Position numbers and translations under genes: made by a program. This document shows positions 44,886 through 52,076 of a DNA stretch of 64,000 bases, piece by piece. Below the pieces are notes generated by a model. That model was not told the DNA's origin. It was given only the letters and a program-made list of their open reading frames with translations, and did no database searches. Origin of the DNA: an uncultured delta proteobacterium (GTDB taxonomy: Bacteria; Desulfobacterota; Binatia; Binatales; Binataceae). The stretch is from NCBI GenBank assembly GCA_963842085.1, contig CAWJET010000002.1:352001-416000 (forward strand), in the 5' to 3' direction. Numbering within the stretch: position 1 is the first letter of the stretch; each line of letters starts with the position of its first letter.

Positions 44886-45530
44886 TCAGGTACCCAGTTT
44901 GTAATCGATCACCGTGGCCGATTCCACCAGCAGCTTTCCATTCCACATTTTCTTGGTCTCTTCCTTGACCAAACCGCCTTGGACGTCATCCGACAGCCAG
45001 TCCTTGGCCCAGGATACCTCGGGTCCGGTCTTGATCGTGGTCTCGATCCAATGAGTCTTGATCTTATTGCCCATTACAGTCAGGTCCTCGTCGCCTTGGG
45101 TCTCCTTGACCGTCTGCTGCTTGGGAGGCTTTTCCCACAGCGAGTCGCTTGCGTTGCTGACCTCGCCGTTGGCGAAGAGTGTCACCTTGTCGGCAGGCAT
45201 CTCGGTTTCGCTGCCGTCGCCCAGATCGATCCTGGTCTCCTCGAGGACGGCTTTGTCCTTGTTGAGATCGATCAGCTTGGAGTTGATGCGCATGACTGCG
45301 GCGTGGGGCGGATGCGCCATCGCTTCTACGACGCCGACATTGTTCTCACGATGTTCGAAGACTTTCCGCTCGATGGTAACGTAAGTGCCGGGTTTGAAGT
45401 GAGCCCATTGCGCGTACTCCGGATTAGCCGGCTCCGGTGGGTGCGAATCGTCAGCGGCCATCAGAAAGAGGCTTGCGCACAAAACACTGGAGACCAGGAT
45501 CGCCGCGGAGAGTGTCGGCCGGAACCTCAT
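44886..45530 (-). CDS. Exported beta-rich hypothetical protein
   Basis: GGAGG RBS, signal peptide, NPEY..W..FKPG and WLSDDVQGGLVK. Confidence 0.8.
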   Translation of the reverse strand: MRFRPTLSAAILVSSVLCASLFLMAADDSHPPEPANPEYAQWAHFKPGTYVTIERKVFEHRENNVGVVEAMAHPPHAAVMRINSKLIDLNKDKAVLEETRIDLGDGSETEMPADKVTLFANGEVSNASDSLWEKPPKQQTVKETQGDEDLTVMGNKIKTHWIETTIKTGPEVSWAKDWLSDDVQGGLVKEETKKMWNGKLLVESATVIDYKLGT

Positions 45531-45760
45531 GGTGGACCTCCTGAAATGACGTAGGTAGAAGCCGATAAGTTATAGTCGAGCTATGCGCGGGATCCTACTG
45601 AAACAAAATTGTCGATGTCAACCGTAACCGGCCGGGCGCTGCGCGCGTGCGCCAGGCTCGGTTGACATTGGACTTCAGGATTCGTTAGATGGGAGCACTG
45701 ACTCAGGGATTTCGACGATTAACGGATACGACCGGGAGTGAGTTCCCATCAGGAGGAACC

Positions 45761-46087
45761 GTGGAATCCGACAACCCCGCCATCCGCAACAGACTTAAGG
45801 AACGCCTTCGCACGCTTATCGGCACGGGCGCCAGCACTATCGTGCTCGCGACAACGATACTTAGCGGGCTCCCTGCCGACGCCAATGTCGCGGACACCAG
45901 TCCGGCGGATACTCTCCAGAATCGCGTCGAGAAAGTGCGCCCCCAGGTTCAGGACGCGAACGCCAACCTGCAGCAGCAGGGCGATTCGAAAATCCAGCTG
46001 GCGTGGTGGCGCAATTGGCGCAACGGCGGTTGGCGCGGATGGGGCTGGCCGAACTGGCACAACTGGCGTAACTGGGGCAACTGGTAA
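45761..46087 (+). CDS. RiPP precursor, GrrA/OscA-like, with Trp-rich W-x-N repeat core
   Basis: AGGAGG RBS then GTG 45761; signal-like N-terminus, LQNRVEKVR leader motif, QLA followed by WWRNWRNGGWRGWGWPNWHNWRNWGNW; directly upstream of the rSAM gene. Confidence 0.88.
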   Translation: MESDNPAIRNRLKERLRTLIGTGASTIVLATTILSGLPADANVADTSPADTLQNRVEKVRPQVQDANANLQQQGDSKIQLAWWRNWRNGGWRGWGWPNWHNWRNWGNW

Positions 46088-46129
46088 AATTTTCCCAACT
46101 ACGCAGCGCGGCATCGGGCAGTACTCGAG

Positions 46130-47299
46130 ATGGCTGCGGTCAATAGATGGCGAATCGCCGGGCCGCTCGAGCTGCTGGTACTGCAGCCCACTCCGTTCTG
46201 CAATCTCGATTGCACATACTGCTACCTTCCTGAGCGCGACTCGAAACGCAGGATGTCCGATGCGACCCTGAATCGGGTTTTTGAATTCGTCTTTTCAAGC
46301 GGAATAGTTGAGCAGGGTTTCACCGTGGTGTGGCACGCGGGCGAGCCGATGGTCCTGCCGATTGCCTATTACGAACGCGCGATCGAAATTGTCAGCGCGC
46401 ATAATCCCGGCGGCTTGCAGGTTGGGCATTCGTTCCAGACCAATGGCGTGCTGATAGACGACGCGTGGTGCGAATTTTTCAAAGCGCATCGCGTCAACGT
46501 CGGAGTCAGCGTTGACGGGCCCGCGTTTCTTCACGATCGCAATCGAAAAACGCGCAAGGGCGGCGGGACTCATCATCGAGTGATGGAAGGGATCCGAAGA
46601 CTGCAGAGCAACGAGGTGCCGTTCCACGTGATCTCCGTGCTGACGGGAGAGTCACTCGACTACGCCGACGAGCTGTTCGATTTCTACATCGAGAACGAGA
46701 TCCGGGAGATTGCGTTCAACATCGAGGAGATCGAAGGACCGCACGCCGGGTCGACGCTCGTCGGCGCGGGCGTCGACGATAGATTCCGCCGCTTTATCGG
46801 CAGAGTTTTTGAGCTGGTCGCGCGCGACGACTCGGCCATCAGCGTACGCGAGTTTGATTCGCTCATTCCGATGATTCTTGGCAGTGGCGGCAAGGACAAC
46901 GACTTTCCGCCAACCCAGGAAAACGCACCTTGCGCGATATTGAGCGTGGACTGCGAAGGCAACTTCACTACTTACTCGCCGGAACTGCTCGGCCTCAAGA
47001 GTAGTCACTATGGCGATTTTGCAATAGGCAATGTGAATACAGATACGCTCGCGTCTGCGATTAATTCCGAGAAATTTCAGCGTATGAGTAGTGATATCGC
47101 GCGCGGACTGAGTAAGTGCCGCGAGACATGTGAGTATTATAGTTTGTGCGGCGGCGGCGCGCCGGTGAATAAGTACTTCGAGAATGGCTCGTTCGATTCG
47201 ACCGAGACCATGTTCTGCCGTTTGAATCGCAAGGCAATCGTCGATGTGATTGTCGCGAAGCTGCAACATCCGATTGGCGCCGTGACCGACGCGGCCTGA
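46130..47299 (+). CDS. grrM: Cyclophane-forming radical SAM/SPASM peptide maturase, GrrM/OscB type
   Basis: QPTPFCNLDCTYCY, WHAGEP, QTNG, GVSVDGP, FNIEE, SPELL, C..TC.Y..LCGGGAP.NK.FENG..TET..C. Confidence 0.88.
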   Translation: MAAVNRWRIAGPLELLVLQPTPFCNLDCTYCYLPERDSKRRMSDATLNRVFEFVFSSGIVEQGFTVVWHAGEPMVLPIAYYERAIEIVSAHNPGGLQVGHSFQTNGVLIDDAWCEFFKAHRVNVGVSVDGPAFLHDRNRKTRKGGGTHHRVMEGIRRLQSNEVPFHVISVLTGESLDYADELFDFYIENEIREIAFNIEEIEGPHAGSTLVGAGVDDRFRRFIGRVFELVARDDSAISVREFDSLIPMILGSGGKDNDFPPTQENAPCAILSVDCEGNFTTYSPELLGLKSSHYGDFAIGNVNTDTLASAINSEKFQRMSSDIARGLSKCRETCEYYSLCGGGAPVNKYFENGSFDSTETMFCRLNRKAIVDVIVAKLQHPIGAVTDAA

Positions 47300-47310
47300 C
47301 GCGAAATTCA

Positions 47311-47883
47311 GTGAAAATTCGTGACGCGCCGCGGTACCAGAGCCGGCTGACGCCGGCCGAACGTGTGCAGGTGTTCGACTCCAGCAAATGGAAGCCGGCA
47401 AGCGCGGACGAGCTGGCGGCATGGACCGGCAATCGTGAGCCGTCCGCTGACGACGTGTTGGTGATCGGCATCCCCCGGCACTTGCTTAAGCGCTGGTGGA
47501 GTCTGGCTGAATCGGACCATATAACCAAGGGGTTTGAGGGCTATGGGCGCGAGGTCGCCGAGTATTTCGAGTACAAGAAGTGGCGCTGGCCGGTCCTTGC
47601 TTTGCTGGAGGTGGTGGCTGCCGGCGGCAAGGGCGATAGAGCGCTGGTACCGAGTAACCCGATGCGGTTCGGCAACGGAGTAGGGACACTGTTCGCGTGC
47701 ATCAACCTGGGCGAGGAGAATGCTGCGATCGCGATCGACGCGGGGTCGGGGCGGATTCGCGTCATCCTCGAGCCCGGCGAGGGTGTGATGCTGCCGGAGA
47801 GCGGTATCCGCTGGAATCGATCGGCGCTCGGCGGCTCGGACGTTGCGATTACGATGCTGATCGGAGAGCTCTCAACTGAATAG
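47311..47883 (+). CDS. Uncharacterised protein co-oriented with the RiPP maturase
   Basis: Starts 11 nt after the rSAM stop; CINLGEE..RVILEPGEG..LP beta-rich C-terminus. Confidence 0.7.
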   Translation: MKIRDAPRYQSRLTPAERVQVFDSSKWKPASADELAAWTGNREPSADDVLVIGIPRHLLKRWWSLAESDHITKGFEGYGREVAEYFEYKKWRWPVLALLEVVAAGGKGDRALVPSNPMRFGNGVGTLFACINLGEENAAIAIDAGSGRIRVILEPGEGVMLPESGIRWNRSALGGSDVAITMLIGELSTE

Positions 47884-47890
47884 TCACTCG

Positions 47891-48196
47891 CTACGGCATC
47901 GACATGCAGGTTTGTAGTTCGCCGAGGGCGTTGTCGATGTATCCGATCGCGTTGGCCTTATGCCCGTGATAGTCATTCGCGGCTTTGGCCTGTAGTACGT
48001 AGCGCGCGTGCTGCAGCTCGTTCATTGCTTGTGAGATTTCAGGATGGCCGCCCGGTGGAGGTCCGCCGTAGTAGCCAGGGCCTTCAGGGGGCGGACCGTA
48101 AGGACCGCTGCTGTAAGCGGGGCCCTGCGAACACGCGGCACAGGCCAGCACGATCCCGAAGATGACGCCGCTGGCGAAACACAATCCTTTGACCAT
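47891..48196 (-). CDS. Small Gly/Pro-rich putative lipoprotein
   Basis: AAGGAGGA RBS, hydrophobic signal ending LACAAC, HPEI..A..L..DYHGH..AI helical domain. Confidence 0.75.
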   Translation of the reverse strand: MVKGLCFASGVIFGIVLACAACSQGPAYSSGPYGPPPEGPGYYGGPPPGGHPEISQAMNELQHARYVLQAKAANDYHGHKANAIGYIDNALGELQTCMSMP

Positions 48197-48209
48197 AGAA
48201 ATCCTCCTT

Positions 48210-48623
48210 TCATGGAAAGTGGCGATCGATATAGGTAAGCGCGGACTCGAGGTCAGGCAATATCTTGGTGCAAAAACGGACCATCCACGGCGAGCATTCC
48301 GCAAAACTGAACGGGCTGAACGCGATCACGAACTTGCCGAGATCGTGTCCGGCGTAGAAGACCTCCATCGCGGTACCGAGCGAGGGCTTACAGTAGTTCA
48401 CCAGCAGCAGGTCGGCGTCGCGAACGTCCTGCAAATCGAACTCGACGATTTCATTGGCCGAATCGATCTCGCGGTCGCGAAAGTTGCGCCGCATCGGATC
48501 GAGCAGGATGAATCTTCCGGCCAGGCGTTCCTTGGCGCGCGTGCGCCAGTCCTTGGCCGAGCGCTCGGACTCCGCATCCATGATTGGACCGCAGAGGTAG
48601 ATTTTTCGGACGCCGTCCGCCAT
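48210..48623 (-). CDS. Nucleoside 2-deoxyribosyltransferase-like protein
   Basis: KIYLCGPI, LDPMRR, D..DV..AD, SLGTAMEV; TGG-TAGATT 8 nt before ATG. Confidence 0.82.
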   Translation of the reverse strand: MADGVRKIYLCGPIMDAESERSAKDWRTRAKERLAGRFILLDPMRRNFRDREIDSANEIVEFDLQDVRDADLLLVNYCKPSLGTAMEVFYAGHDLGKFVIAFSPFSFAECSPWMVRFCTKILPDLESALTYIDRHFP

Positions 48624-48641
48624 CGCGGCGCAATCTACCAT

Positions 48642-48721
48642 ATCCGGGTCAAAGCCGATAAGTTCTACGATGGCCGCGCCAGCGGCGTTCCAAATCCCGG
48701 TCAAAGCCGATAAGTTTTACG
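48642..48721. repeat. 28-bp direct repeat (26/28 identical, period 52) in a divergent promoter region
   Basis: ATCCGGGTCAAAGCCGATAAGTTCTACG and ATCCCGGTCAAAGCCGATAAGTTTTACG. Confidence 0.85.
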
Positions 48722-48725
48722 CCGA

Positions 48726-51700
48726 ATGCGCTGCACACAATGCTCAGCCGAAAATCCCGAGGGAGCGAAGTTCTGCAGCGAATGCGCTTCTCCGTTGGCG
48801 GCGAAGTGTCCGCGGTGCGGCGCAACGAACAAACCCGGAGCCAAGTTTTGTAACGAATGCGCGGCATCGCTTGCGGGCGCGCGCCCGAAATCGATTGCGC
48901 AGCCTGAATCGACGCCTTCGGTGCGCGTATCACTGGAAGAAGCCGCGGCGGCCGTTGCTGAGGGCGAGCGCAAGATCGTCACCGCGCTGTTCGCCGATAT
49001 CAAGGGCTCGACCGAGCTGGAGCAGGACCTCGACCCCGAGGAAGCGCGCGCGATTGTAGACCCCGCACTGAAGCTGATGATCGACGCGGTGCGTCGTTAC
49101 GACGGGTACGTGGTGCAATCGACCGGCGATGGAATATTCGCGCTGTTCGGGGCGCCGGTTGCTCATGAGGACCATCCGCAGCGCACGCTCTATGCGGCCA
49201 TCCGCATGCAGGAAGAGTTGCGCCGATACTCGACGAAGCTCGTCGCCGACGGAGGCAATCCGCTCCAATGCCGAGTCGGCGTCAACACCGGTGAGGTTGT
49301 CGTGCGATCGATCTCGACCGGTGGCGGGCATGTCGAGTACACGCCCATCGGGCATACCACCAACCTTGCGTCCCGGATGCAGGCAGTGGCGCCGGTAGGT
49401 TCGATCGCAGTCGCAGAGCCCACGCGCAAGCTCTGCGAGGGCTATTTCGCGCTCCAGCCGCTCGGACCGACCAAGGTCAAAGGCGTCAGCGAGCCGGTCA
49501 ACGTTTACGAAGTGACCGGCCTCGGTCCGCTGCGGACGCGCCTGCAGCGCTCGGCGGGCCGCGGGCTCTCGAAGTTCGTCGGCCGCGAGCGTGAGATGGA
49601 GGCGCTCAAGCGCTCGTCGGAGCAGGCGCGAGCGGGCCGCGGGCAGATTGTCGCGGCGATGGCCGAGGCGGGCACCGGCAAGTCGCGGCTGTTCTTCGAG
49701 TTCAAGGCCAAGAACCAGTCCGGCTGGATGGTGCTGGAGACGTTCTCGGTCTCGCACGGCAAGGCGGCGGCGTATTTTCCAGTGATCGACCTGCTGCACA
49801 ACTATTTCCGCATCACCTCGGATGACGACGCGCGCGCAAGGCGCGAGAAGGTCGCCGGCAAGATCGCAATCCTGGATCGATCGCTGGAGGACGCTCTGCC
49901 GTACCTGTTCGGCTTGCTGGGCATCGTCGAGGGCGACGATCCGATTGCGCAGATGGACGGGCAGGTGAAGAAGCGGCGCACGCTCGAAGCGATCAAGCGG
50001 ATATTGTCGCGCGAATCGATGAACCAGCCGCTGATGGTTATCTTCGAGGACTTGCACTGGATCGATGACGAAACGCAGGCGTTCCTGAATTTGCTGGCCG
50101 ACTCGATCGGCACCGGGAAAATTTTGCTGCTGGTGAACTACCGGCCCGAGTACTCGCATCAGTGGAACAGCCGGACTTACTACACACAGTTGCGGCTCGA
50201 CCCGCTCGGCAAAGAGTCGGCCGACGAGATGCTCTCCGCGCTGCTCGGCGATGGTGCGGAGCTGGCAGCGCTCAAGAAACTCATCATTGAAAAAACGGAA
50301 GGCAATCCCTTCTTCATGGAAGAGACGGTGCAGGTCCTGCTCGACGAAGGCGCGCTGGTGCGCGACGGCAGCGCTGCGCGGCTCACGCGGCCGCTGGGCG
50401 AGCTCAAGATCCCGCCGACTGTGCAGGGCATCCTCGCCGCGCGCATCGACCGGTTACCGCCTGAGTCAAAGGACCTGCTGCAAGCGCTGGCCGTAATCGG
50501 GCGTGAATTTCCGCTGTCGCTGATTCGTGCGGTGGTGCCGAAATCCGATGATGAACTCAACCGCCTGCTTAGTGACCTGCAGTTGGGCGAGTTCATCTAC
50601 GAGCAGCCGGCGGTGGGCGACGTCGAGTACACTTTCAAGCACGGCCTGACCCAGGAGGTCGCGTTTGGATCGGTGCTGACAGACCGGCGCAAGGAGCTTC
50701 ATCGACGCACCGCGGTTGCAATCGAGTCTCTATACGCGGATCGCCTGGAAGACCGTTACGCCGAGCTGGCGCATCACTATGGCCGTGCGGGCGACGCCGC
50801 CAAAGCGGCGCACTACCTCCGTCTTGCGGGCGTACAGGCGCGCGCGCGGTCGGCCTTCAGCGAGGCGCTCGCACATCTGACTGCCGGACTGGAATTTCTC
50901 AATACTATTCCCCAGAGTCCGGCCCGCGACGTACACGAGTTGCAGTTGCAGTTGGACCTGGCCGATGCCTCTACGACCGTGTATGGTCCCGCTTCCGATG
51001 TACCCGAAGCGGCCTTTTCGCGAGCCTACGAGCTTTGCCGTCGCGGCGGCGAAAGTGTTGACCTCCTGCGAGCATTGGACGGGATTAGAAATGTGCATAA
51101 CACCAGAGGAGCAGTGCACAAAGCGTACAAAGTGGCTCAAGAGATCCTGGAGATAGCTCGCAGAATCAACGATCCAACTCGGGTTGCGCTCGCCCAAACA
51201 GCCTTGGGCATGTCTCTGAGTACTCTGGCCGAACTGGCTCAAGCACGTGAGATGATGGAAGAGTCGCTGGCGCCGCTGGGATCTCTGCCGGATCTTCCGA
51301 ACCTGCAAACTGCCCGGGTAATTCTGCCTCTCTTGCTCGGTCGCACACTATGGCTGCTTGGCTTCCCGGACCAGGGGCTCAAGCGGATGCGCGAGGCTGA
51401 AATCGCCGGGAATCGGAGCGCCAACCCCATTGCGAAGGCTTTTGCCTTGCAACCGAGCGAAGTGCACACCTGGTGTGGCAATTTTGAAGTGGTTCGAGAA
51501 AACTCGCAAAAGCTGTTGCAGGCACCCTGGCTGGTAGAACTAAACCCTCTCTTCGCCGCTCGAGCAGACGTCTCTCTAGGCTGGTTGCTGGCCAGAACAG
51601 GAAAGCTCGACGGGATAGCGATGATACGCGACGCGATGGCAAGGATAACTGCGACCCGCTTCGGGCTATCCCGGTCGCTGTTCGGCTCGATGCTGGCGGA

Positions 51701-52076
51701 AGCATGCGCATCCGTCGGCCAAATCGATGAAGCCGTGAGCGTGCTGGATGAGACACTTCCGTTCGCGCAGACCGAGGAGCGCTACTACGAAGCCGAGTTG
51801 AATCGCCAGCGCGGAGAATTGCTCTTGATGCGCGGGAGCACGGAAAGTGGAGCGGCCGAAGATTGCTTTCGCGAGGCGATCAAAATCGCCCGGCGCCAAA
51901 GCGCCAAGTCGTGGGAACTGCGCGCGACGACCAGCCTTGCGCGGTTGCTCGCGAAGCAGGGCAAGCGCGACGAGGCGCGTGCGATACTCGCGGAAATCTA
52001 CAACTGGTTCACCGAGGGCTTCAGCACCGCCGACCTGAAGGACGCGAAGGCCTTGCTCGATGAGTTGAGTGGATAG
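48726..52076 (+). CDS. Double Zn-ribbon / class III nucleotide cyclase / STAND ATPase / TPR protein
   Basis: Four CxxC pairs, LFADIKGST, TGDG, TNLASR, FVGRERE, AGTGKSR, FEDLHW, GNPFF, SWELRA..WFTEGF. Confidence 0.93.
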   Translation: MRCTQCSAENPEGAKFCSECASPLAAKCPRCGATNKPGAKFCNECAASLAGARPKSIAQPESTPSVRVSLEEAAAAVAEGERKIVTALFADIKGSTELEQDLDPEEARAIVDPALKLMIDAVRRYDGYVVQSTGDGIFALFGAPVAHEDHPQRTLYAAIRMQEELRRYSTKLVADGGNPLQCRVGVNTGEVVVRSISTGGGHVEYTPIGHTTNLASRMQAVAPVGSIAVAEPTRKLCEGYFALQPLGPTKVKGVSEPVNVYEVTGLGPLRTRLQRSAGRGLSKFVGREREMEALKRSSEQARAGRGQIVAAMAEAGTGKSRLFFEFKAKNQSGWMVLETFSVSHGKAAAYFPVIDLLHNYFRITSDDDARARREKVAGKIAILDRSLEDALPYLFGLLGIVEGDDPIAQMDGQVKKRRTLEAIKRILSRESMNQPLMVIFEDLHWIDDETQAFLNLLADSIGTGKILLLVNYRPEYSHQWNSRTYYTQLRLDPLGKESADEMLSALLGDGAELAALKKLIIEKTEGNPFFMEETVQVLLDEGALVRDGSAARLTRPLGELKIPPTVQGILAARIDRLPPESKDLLQALAVIGREFPLSLIRAVVPKSDDELNRLLSDLQLGEFIYEQPAVGDVEYTFKHGLTQEVAFGSVLTDRRKELHRRTAVAIESLYADRLEDRYAELAHHYGRAGDAAKAAHYLRLAGVQARARSAFSEALAHLTAGLEFLNTIPQSPARDVHELQLQLDLADASTTVYGPASDVPEAAFSRAYELCRRGGESVDLLRALDGIRNVHNTRGAVHKAYKVAQEILEIARRINDPTRVALAQTALGMSLSTLAELAQAREMMEESLAPLGSLPDLPNLQTARVILPLLLGRTLWLLGFPDQGLKRMREAEIAGNRSANPIAKAFALQPSEVHTWCGNFEVVRENSQKLLQAPWLVELNPLFAARADVSLGWLLARTGKLDGIAMIRDAMARITATRFGLSRSLFGSMLAEACASVGQIDEAVSVLDETLPFAQTEERYYEAELNRQRGELLLMRGSTESGAAEDCFREAIKIARRQSAKSWELRATTSLARLLAKQGKRDEARAILAEIYNWFTEGFSTADLKDAKALLDELSG

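Follow-up and report, generated by a model that had tools for sequence, protein, structure and literature searches.

A probable triceptide-type peptide locus of the GrrM/OscB branch in uncultured Binataceae, with a MicC-like partner that lacks the metal triad

The window analysed here, a 64,000-nucleotide stretch of DNA from an uncultured delta proteobacterium, encodes a short tryptophan-rich peptide next to a radical S-adenosylmethionine (SAM) enzyme, which raises the question of whether the peptide is the substrate of that enzyme and, if it is, what the other conserved genes at the locus contribute. The host group is Binataceae, as judged from the labels of related loci and from named homologues of the third gene in Candidatus Binatus. 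A first-pass annotation had described three co-oriented genes, and our reading of the open reading frames (ORFs) in the window bears this out: the precursor gene (A; 45761..46087, 108 codons plus stop), the gene for a radical SAM/SPASM peptide maturase of the GrrM/OscB family (B; 46130..47299, 389 residues) and a third gene (C; 47311..47883, 190 residues) share the plus strand, with intergenic gaps of 42 nucleotides between A and B and 11 nucleotides between B and C. We conclude that this is very probably a triceptide-type locus of the GrrM/OscB branch, that is, a locus for a peptide that is made on the ribosome and modified after translation (RiPP). Triceptides, as the text of PMC11499958 available to us defines them, carry three-residue cyclophanes on Omega1-X2-X3 motifs, which are made by a three-residue cyclophane-forming enzyme (3-CyFE).

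The enzyme matches the curated family TIGR04261 ('cyclophane-forming radical SAM/SPASM peptide maturase GrrM/OscB') with 482.6 bits at a cut-off of 310, its residues 18–379 aligning with model positions 1–362 of 363. The next families all remain below their own cut-offs (AmcB, 313 versus 425 bits; anaerobic sulfatase maturase, TIGR03942, 196.1 versus 349.45; DynA, 164 versus 450), and the margin of TIGR04261 over AmcB, the nearest of them, is 170 bits. Pfam Radical_SAM is matched at 67.8 bits. The cluster-binding motif type C-x3-C-x2-C lies at residues 24–31 (C24, C28 and C31), which leaves no room for an N-terminal recognition domain, and six further cysteines fall within the last ~125 residues. 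No other TIGR04261 match is present in the 4.93-Mb, two-contig genome. The first-pass annotation had named a grouping with anaerobic sulfatase maturases, which share the SPASM superfamily, as the outcome that would speak against its reading; given the TIGR03942 score, that role was rejected, and no sulfatase gene is adjacent. Its match to TIGR04261 and its failure on the sulfatase-maturase models therefore support the triceptide reading.

What such an enzyme would do is suggested by its characterized relative. According to the consulted part of PMC11002830, OscB (IPR026357) joins C7 of Trp to the β-carbon of Asn or Asp, and C4 of Phe to the β-carbon of Asn, from position i to i+2, and co-expression of OscB with its precursor in E. 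coli sufficed for the reaction; the work is traced to Nguyen et al. 2020 (Nat Chem) in PMC11499958. These links match the W-x-N chemistry that the first-pass annotation had assumed, and by the OscB precedent ring formation would be expected at the W-x-N motifs of the window peptide.

The peptide encoded by gene A offers such motifs in abundance. Its C terminus is the 27-residue core WWRNWRNGGWRGWGWPNWHNWRNWGNW (46004..46084), which contains six W-x-N motifs (WRN, WRN, WPN, WHN, WRN and WGN), the last four of them contiguous, as predicted sites of cyclophanes from Trp to the β-carbon of Asn. The core comprises 10 Trp, 4 Arg, 1 His and 5 Gly with no acidic residue; it also includes W-R-G and W-G-W motifs without Asn, and it has N-G-G-W after the second W-R-N and otherwise no repeated Gly-Gly unit. 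At the DNA level, AACTGG occurs at 46052, 46061, 46070 and 46079, four copies at 9-bp spacing. The length, the Trp count, the six motifs and the 9-bp recurrence had all been reported in the first reading of the sequence, and all are confirmed. Ahead of the core lie a signal-peptide-like segment (residues 1–41; 45761..45883) and a leader-like segment (residues 42–81; 45884..46003) with a conserved R-V-E-x-V-R stretch and a Q-L-A junction immediately before the core.

The ORF is open over 45689..46087. An in-frame GTG at 45761 follows five bases after AGGAGG (45751–45756). In related loci the Shine–Dalgarno sequence and the GTG are kept, the in-frame residues upstream of them diverge, and the gene calls of homologues are mostly 108 residues long; for these three reasons we take 45761 as the start. 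The ATG at 45689 was rejected on the same grounds.

If the core is cross-linked at W-x-N, selection should hold its Trp and Asn residues and leave the middle position free. We compared the last 30 codons of the precursor (the 27 core codons plus Q-L-A) between the window and 18 related loci. Across these 19 sequences, 28 of the 30 codons are invariant in amino acid while most of the non-Trp codons vary synonymously, so the core pattern is not a product of chance. Pairwise codon differences amount to 651 synonymous and 108 non-synonymous, and every non-synonymous change in the core falls on X2 of the fifth (R/H) or sixth (G/R) W-x-N motif. A wider alignment takes in 28 precursors with identities as low as 34%. 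Its invariant columns all belong to the W and N residues of the motifs (W86, N88, W96, N98, W99, N101, W102 and W105), and R55, L80 and A81 are nearly invariant, as is the Q-L-A ahead of the core. The median ratio of non-synonymous to synonymous substitution rates (dN/dS; NG86, window versus 11 related loci without split hits) is 0.137 for the precursor and 0.119 for the enzyme. Judged by these sequence comparisons, selection acts on the precursor as it should on a cyclophane substrate, with W and N fixed and X2 free. In one related locus (L018:2418-2768) the core is extended at its C terminus by W-H-N and W-P-N units, giving nine W-x-N motifs where the window has six.

These patterns also bear on whether the enzyme might make other links here, such as ether or C–N bonds, or might cross-link only some of the motifs, in which case the ring count and topology given below would be wrong. 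Related SPASM enzymes do form C–O and C–N links, as described in the part of PMC11499958 at hand, the core contains the two Asn-free motifs, and the enzyme is merely 53–59% identical even to its full-length metagenome relatives. Against this, TIGR04261 is passed by a wide margin, and strict conservation of W and N with a free X2 is what an i to i+2 link predicts. We therefore regard a different linkage as very unlikely, and continue with Trp-to-Asn cyclophanes as the expected product.

The pairing of precursor and enzyme is not confined to the window. With gene C as query, 23 genome loci were gathered, 22 of them labelled Candidatus Binatus, Binataceae or 'uncultured delta proteobacterium', and all three genes are present in 21 of the 23. 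Nineteen loci (L004–L022) carry close copies of the three genes at one chromosomal site, in the order glpK, GNAT, a small gene on the minus strand, up214, A, B, C and dn137 (the genes up214 and dn137 are described below). Two further loci (L024 and L025) hold divergent copies, with a precursor 51% identical, an enzyme ~61% identical and a gene C product 26–28% identical to those of the window; their flanks differ, and up214 and dn137 are kept. A locus from Desulfopila (L026) was treated as unrelated, since only 65 residues of gene C are matched at 32% and no radical SAM match is present.

A scan of metagenomes with distant gene C members, 21–31% identical to that of the window, yielded 48 loci. 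In 42 of the 44 with at least 100 nucleotides of upstream sequence, a co-oriented GrrM-like gene ends 17–491 nucleotides before gene C; in the two exceptions the upstream sequence is limited to 231 and 262 nucleotides. All 20 loci with at least 1700 nucleotides upstream, plus one more (L069), encode a W-rich precursor that starts with a signal-like segment and ends in a W-x-N tail, and these tails share a W-P-N-W-H/R-N-W centre. A precursor with aromatic-x-Asn motifs thus adjoins the enzyme gene in 21 genome loci and 21 metagenome loci, as it does in the window. Occurrence is nevertheless patchy even among relatives: in a sample of 401 genomes from the phylum, which does not represent the whole phylum, gene C gave one weak match besides that in the window's own genome, and TIGR04261 was present in two genomes, the window's own and G017. 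The G017 match (L076; G017:C1:2785295-2789320; 323.7 bits) belongs to a different cluster, in which the gene stands after a radical SAM/SPASM-like gene and before a different 108-residue peptide gene, with neither a W-x-N precursor nor gene C.

The hidden Markov model check proposed in the first-pass annotation, against GrrM and GrrA models, came out divided: the enzyme passes TIGR04261, as described above, and the precursor fails TIGR04260 (GrrA/OscA1), with no match at E ≤ 0.1 and a cut-off of 31 bits. Nor does the precursor have the second feature of that family, a core of Gly-rich repeats, as only 5 of its 27 core residues are Gly. Over the whole genome, the best TIGR04260 match (14.3 bits) lies at an unrelated place. 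A protein search with the precursor returned 31 clusters of relatives, none of them named. One distant relative with WRNGG repeats (P0299) scores 61 bits on TIGR04260 over its whole length, N terminus included; scores of 20–23 bits, below the cut-off, were obtained for another (P0298) and for the L060 and L024 precursors. Because P0299 passes and the others score in between, we read the Binatus peptide, from these sequence scores, as a Gly-poor offshoot that is joined to the GrrA family by intermediates and is a non-member by the curated test.

The N terminus of the precursor suggests how the peptide might leave the cell. We scored charge, Kyte–Doolittle hydropathy and small-x-small sites with a simple heuristic script on the 28 aligned precursors. 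The mean over a 15-residue Kyte–Doolittle window is 1.5–2.2 in all 28, the N-region has a net positive charge in 26, and most have a small-x-small site after the hydrophobic stretch, usually past a proline; in five rows the first small-x-small match of the script fell within the hydrophobic stretch itself. The window precursor opens with positive charge, continues with a hydrophobic stretch and then reads L-P-A-D-A followed by N-V-A-D, which places a putative cleavage after residue 41. These features point to a Sec-type signal-like segment. A protease or exporter shared between loci was not found among the flanks of the Binataceae loci, L024 and eight metagenome loci. In Binataceae the module is flanked by housekeeping genes, and in L024 the flanks differ; the 20 flanking ORFs scanned in the eight metagenome loci vary by locus and include an MFS transporter, FAA hydrolase, Na/Ca exchanger, NADH dehydrogenase subunits and MlaD, as well as MMPL, acyltransferases and a GNAT protein. 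Since the N terminus is signal-like and the module brings no protease or exporter of its own, export and first cleavage would most likely proceed by the general Sec pathway and signal peptidase.

A fourth gene, up214 (44886..45530, minus strand), is divergent from the precursor gene and encodes a 214-residue secreted protein of no known family. Pfam and NCBIfam gave no family for it, and its profile found nothing significant in the PDB; weak SH3 matches at E 0.03–0.05 were taken as chance. In the Atlas search its matches were unnamed, and the nearest named cluster, DUF3108-like at 0.90, is a lead only. An alignment of up214 homologues has 12 invariant columns. A homologue adjoins the precursor gene in the 19 close Binataceae loci and in the divergent L024 and L025, where the other flanks are different, and it stands beside the precursor gene, in either orientation, in 17 of the 21 metagenome loci that include a precursor; the other four loci have less than 1 kb of upstream sequence. 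On the other side of the locus, dn137 (47891..48196, minus strand; 101 residues from an inner ATG) is convergent with gene C. Its product has a Cys-containing hydrophobic N-terminal segment, a Pro/Gly-rich stretch, a helical-looking C-terminal part and the end C-x-S-M-P; searches assigned it to no family. In the Binataceae loci, even the divergent L024 (97 residues) and L025, it stays next to gene C, whereas no homologue was found in the metagenome loci at E ≤ 1e-4. Because up214 is kept with A, B and C in both Binataceae and metagenomes and dn137 only in Binataceae, the conserved module is up214, A, B and C; the membership of dn137 is uncertain.

The company of up214 raises the possibility that the end product is not a freed peptide at all. 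Once its signal is cleaved off, the precursor could instead be a small envelope protein of ~67 residues that has been exported and whose cross-linked Trp tail acts together with up214. The tail would work in the periplasm or the outer membrane, for instance by anchoring or by binding a ligand. Such a fate would fit the signal-like N termini of all 28 precursors, the lack of a leader protease or dedicated exporter common to the loci, the co-conservation of the secreted up214 protein, the conservation of the leader segment itself and the inheritance of the module at a fixed chromosomal site in Binataceae. It fits less well with the statement, in the part of PMC12912966 consulted, that all characterized triceptides are cut ahead of the first ring motif; the conserved Q-L-A could be such a cut site, and up214, being without a family or a significant PDB match, gives no functional clue. 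We consider an envelope protein a possible outcome, though not the one we would expect. It touches only on what the final product is, and the cross-linking mechanism can hold alongside it.

The contribution of gene C is harder to read. Its product belongs to no Pfam or NCBIfam family, and its 132 close relatives are all hypothetical proteins, with a few named ones from Candidatus Binatus. A profile search of 1.84 billion representatives gave 163 clusters at E ≤ 0.001. For the 37 of these clusters that were scanned, Pfam assigned no significant family to the matched domain. A protein of 389 residues (P0168) fuses a gene C-like domain (38–199) to 2OG-FeII_Oxy_3 (296–377; 33.8 bits, gathering score 27); another (P0263) is an unrelated surface protein. 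A further profile search returned only unnamed or 'hypothetical' proteins.

Although the single gene C sequence found no match in the PDB, a profile built from 90 members found one: chain 9vkm_A, the 'alpha-ketoglutarate-dependent non-heme iron oxygenase MicC', at E 1.9e-13 and over chain residues 63–289. An AlphaFold2 model from the same 90-row alignment reached pLDDT 94.2 and pTM 0.90, whereas the model from a shallow alignment of 28 close sequences (pLDDT 41.7) was unusable. The best Foldseek matches of the good model in the PDB are cupins at TM 0.48–0.51. VIA places it closest to the Fe(II)/2-oxoglutarate dioxygenase 3dkq (Z 9.8, root-mean-square deviation 3.9, 137 residues aligned), followed at Z 9.7–9.1 by ALKBH7, OkaE, PiuC, prolyl hydroxylases (P4H) and AlkB. 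An Atlas search had given only matches below 0.9, with 2-oxoglutarate oxygenases and cupins as leads, and the profile and VIA results later agreed with these. The predicted structure of the gene C product is thus a double-stranded beta-helix fold of the MicC type.

MicC offers a detailed precedent. As reported in the part of PMC12912966 available, it cuts the N–Cα bond of Gly8 in the cross-linked, ADP-ribosylated core YSKIHASGGFTKDL, leaving a C-terminal amide, and H160, D162, H253, R188 and K266 are each essential by mutagenesis. To compare these positions we used the HMMER alignment to the 9vkm chain, whose numbering is the native one plus 20, as verified on the H-x-D motif, H253, R188, F190, Y244 and K266. 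The MicC H-x-D falls in an insertion that has no column in the gene C family profile. The residue opposite H253 is W168 of gene C, placed there with the highest posterior probability, in a column that holds W, L, V, F, Y or A and has His in only 6 of 90 members. R188 corresponds to A138 (column T/A/S), Y244 to V159 and K266 to T181 (column L/W/T/V), and gene C has no His past residue 70. The protein thus fails both the test for a MicC-type metal triad and that for the basic residues (R188 and K266) that hold the C5 carboxylate of 2-oxoglutarate. Because the triad and the 2-oxoglutarate positions are all replaced and no His follows residue 70, gene C is, judged by its sequence, a MicC homologue unable to bind iron and 2-oxoglutarate in the way that MicC does. 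Its median dN/dS over the 11 loci is 0.412, which indicates purifying selection that is ~3 times looser than that on A and B.

Could gene C nonetheless still be an oxygenase? It might cut oxidatively at the G-G after the second W-R-N ring by means of a non-canonical metal site, which would release a C-terminally amidated bicyclic peptide and a second fragment. The homology to MicC speaks for this, as does the layout of the two cores: MicA is arranged as ring motif, G-G, ring motif, with MicC cutting at the first Gly (PMC12912966, in the part consulted), and the N-G-G-W of the window core matches it. The gene C family moreover retains the polar residues N132 (invariant), D/E135, E136, R150 and E157, and the same text mentions that in Actinomycetota and Bacteroidota homologues of MicC adjoin radical SAM genes, and suggests their functional diversification. 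On the other hand, all five of the residues found essential in MicC are replaced, with the H253 position rarely His anywhere in the family; the G-G is not kept across the wider precursor family, in which W-G, G-W, F-G or W-H stands in its place; and gene C evolves under a dN/dS three times that of the radical SAM gene. An active gene C is therefore unlikely. We lean, by a modest degree, towards a non-catalytic accessory that binds the peptide or the enzyme. A predicted complex of gene C with precursor residues 45–108 (score 0.02, mark 0.32) carries no weight either way.

Taken together, these observations allow a pathway to be proposed. The 108-residue precursor would be modified in the cytoplasm by the radical SAM/SPASM enzyme, whose 5′-deoxyadenosyl radical would abstract a hydrogen from the β-carbon of the Asn at position 3 of each W-x-N motif. 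The resulting radical would add to the indole of the Trp at position 1 (at C7 in OscB), each three-residue cyclophane costing 2 Da. If as many as six rings form, four of them consecutive, the product would be a rigid, cationic Trp/Arg-rich peptide. Gene C would act as the non-catalytic binding accessory, and the modified peptide would be exported through the general Sec pathway and cut by signal peptidase after residue 41, possibly with a further cut near the conserved Q-L-A junction; the secreted up214 protein is a co-conserved partner in the module. A bolder version of this scheme, which we advance as a speculation and rather doubt in its entirety, is a four-gene soil system in which a Sec-signal precursor is cross-linked in the cytoplasm while held by a dead MicC-like pseudo-enzyme that replaces the missing recognition domain, and is then exported as a Trp-cyclophane ladder that works in the envelope with up214 and not as a free antibiotic.

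Several findings weigh against the scheme or parts of it. Pfam SPASM reaches 19.4 bits on the enzyme, just below the gathering score of 21.5, so the SPASM assignment rests on the full-length NCBIfam alignment. The C-terminal cysteines follow a C-x3-C-x5-C pattern, which departs from the textbook SPASM motif. The precursor does not match the GrrA/OscA1 model, and for that reason its pairing with the enzyme rests on adjacency and motif. The signal reading comes from a simple heuristic, and the hydrophobic stretch could be a membrane anchor or a leader element. One related locus (L023:3451-4478) is a natural deletion in which A, B and the first 138 codons of C are gone: an up214 homologue with an internal stop abuts a gene C fragment (residues 139–189), and a dn137 homologue is next. 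Such a loss makes the module dispensable. In three loci (L016, L017 and L021) the tblastn hits to B are split between different frames, as are those to C in L021, and the N-terminal part of the precursor is disrupted in L013 and L016; these are either long-read sequencing errors or early decay. Finally, the role of gene C is the weakest step of the proposal. A binding partner is not obviously needed, because OscB is reported to work in E. coli with its precursor alone (PMC11002830, as far as consulted).

How far, then, does the locus depart from what is already described? The window enzyme sits in the same curated family as those of the OscA/OscB and GrrA/GrrM systems (TIGR04260 and TIGR04261), and its core presents the Omega-x-N motif that OscB cross-links from Trp C7 to the β-carbon of Asn. 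The differences lie elsewhere: those systems are best known from cyanobacteria and the window has a Binataceae host; the window precursor lacks both the GrrA/OscA1 model match and the Gly-rich repeats, which its relative P0299 has; and the window locus appears to add the triad-less MicC-like protein and the secreted up214. With the MicC system of minviopeptin (PDB 9VKM, described in the part of PMC12912966 consulted) the locus shares a double-stranded beta-helix protein encoded beside a cyclophane-forming radical SAM enzyme. The 9VKM chain is longer, at 295 residues compared with ~190 for gene C, the minviopeptin cluster has an ADP-ribosyltransferase that the window locus lacks, and the partner enzyme of MicC is of a PasB-like branch whereas that of the window is of the GrrM branch. 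In composition, the core also resembles linear Trp/Arg-rich antimicrobial peptides. These are unmodified host-defence peptides, whereas the Trp residues of the window core are predicted to be locked in rings.

What is already known is the enzyme family and its motif chemistry, and an NCBIfam-based annotation would name the enzyme. As far as we searched, the Gly-poor W-x-N precursor family, the triad-less MicC-like partner, the co-conserved secreted protein and the signal-like N terminus appear undescribed. The motif strings of the core matched no paper in the literature searched, which for Binatota and RiPPs gave only general surveys of biosynthetic gene clusters, and the part of PMC12912966 consulted contains no remark on ligand loss in MicC homologues. 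The suggestion in the first-pass annotation that the core, host lineage and gene set are new holds to that extent; primary catalogues of triceptide precursors may list relatives. Four points go beyond that annotation: the MicC-like fold of gene C without its catalytic residues, the signal-like segment of the precursor, the co-conserved fourth gene for a secreted protein, and how common this type of locus is in soil metagenomes.

The surroundings of the module can be given briefly. Downstream of dn137, the minus strand at 48210-48704 encodes a 164-residue protein with a nucleoside 2-deoxyribosyltransferase-like domain (33.6 bits), which is 82–97% conserved in most Binataceae loci. It is followed on the plus strand, at 48726-52076, by a 1116-residue protein that combines a double zinc ribbon, an adenylate/guanylate cyclase domain, an AAA_16 ATPase and TPR repeats. 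In some Binataceae loci, though not in L024, this protein is encoded next to the module. A scan of 45400–48400 for promoters and terminators found sites no commoner than in shuffled sequence, and the plus strand gave none of use. The sequencing runs listed for the locus number 10, all of soil or wetland DNA, with no RNA run among them.

Triceptides are a young RiPP class, and the GrrM/OscB branch has one characterized example in the cited literature, as far as the consulted parts of PMC11499958 and PMC11002830 go. The locus type described here extends that branch to uncultured Binatota and to many soil metagenome lineages. Its predicted product is a dense array of Trp cyclophanes: the 27 residues would hold six rings, and the expanded core of L018 has nine W-x-N motifs. 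The peptide may reasonably be put forward as a candidate membrane-active compound of rigid, cationic character. Should the signal peptide be real, this would be a RiPP that uses the general secretion route. Gene C, for its part, presents a natural case of an oxygenase fold that is without the catalytic residues and yet tightly coupled to a radical SAM peptide maturase, as the 42 of 44 metagenome loci indicate; if it proves to be a binding partner, it would help to explain how substrates are recognized by SPASM enzymes that have no recognition domain.

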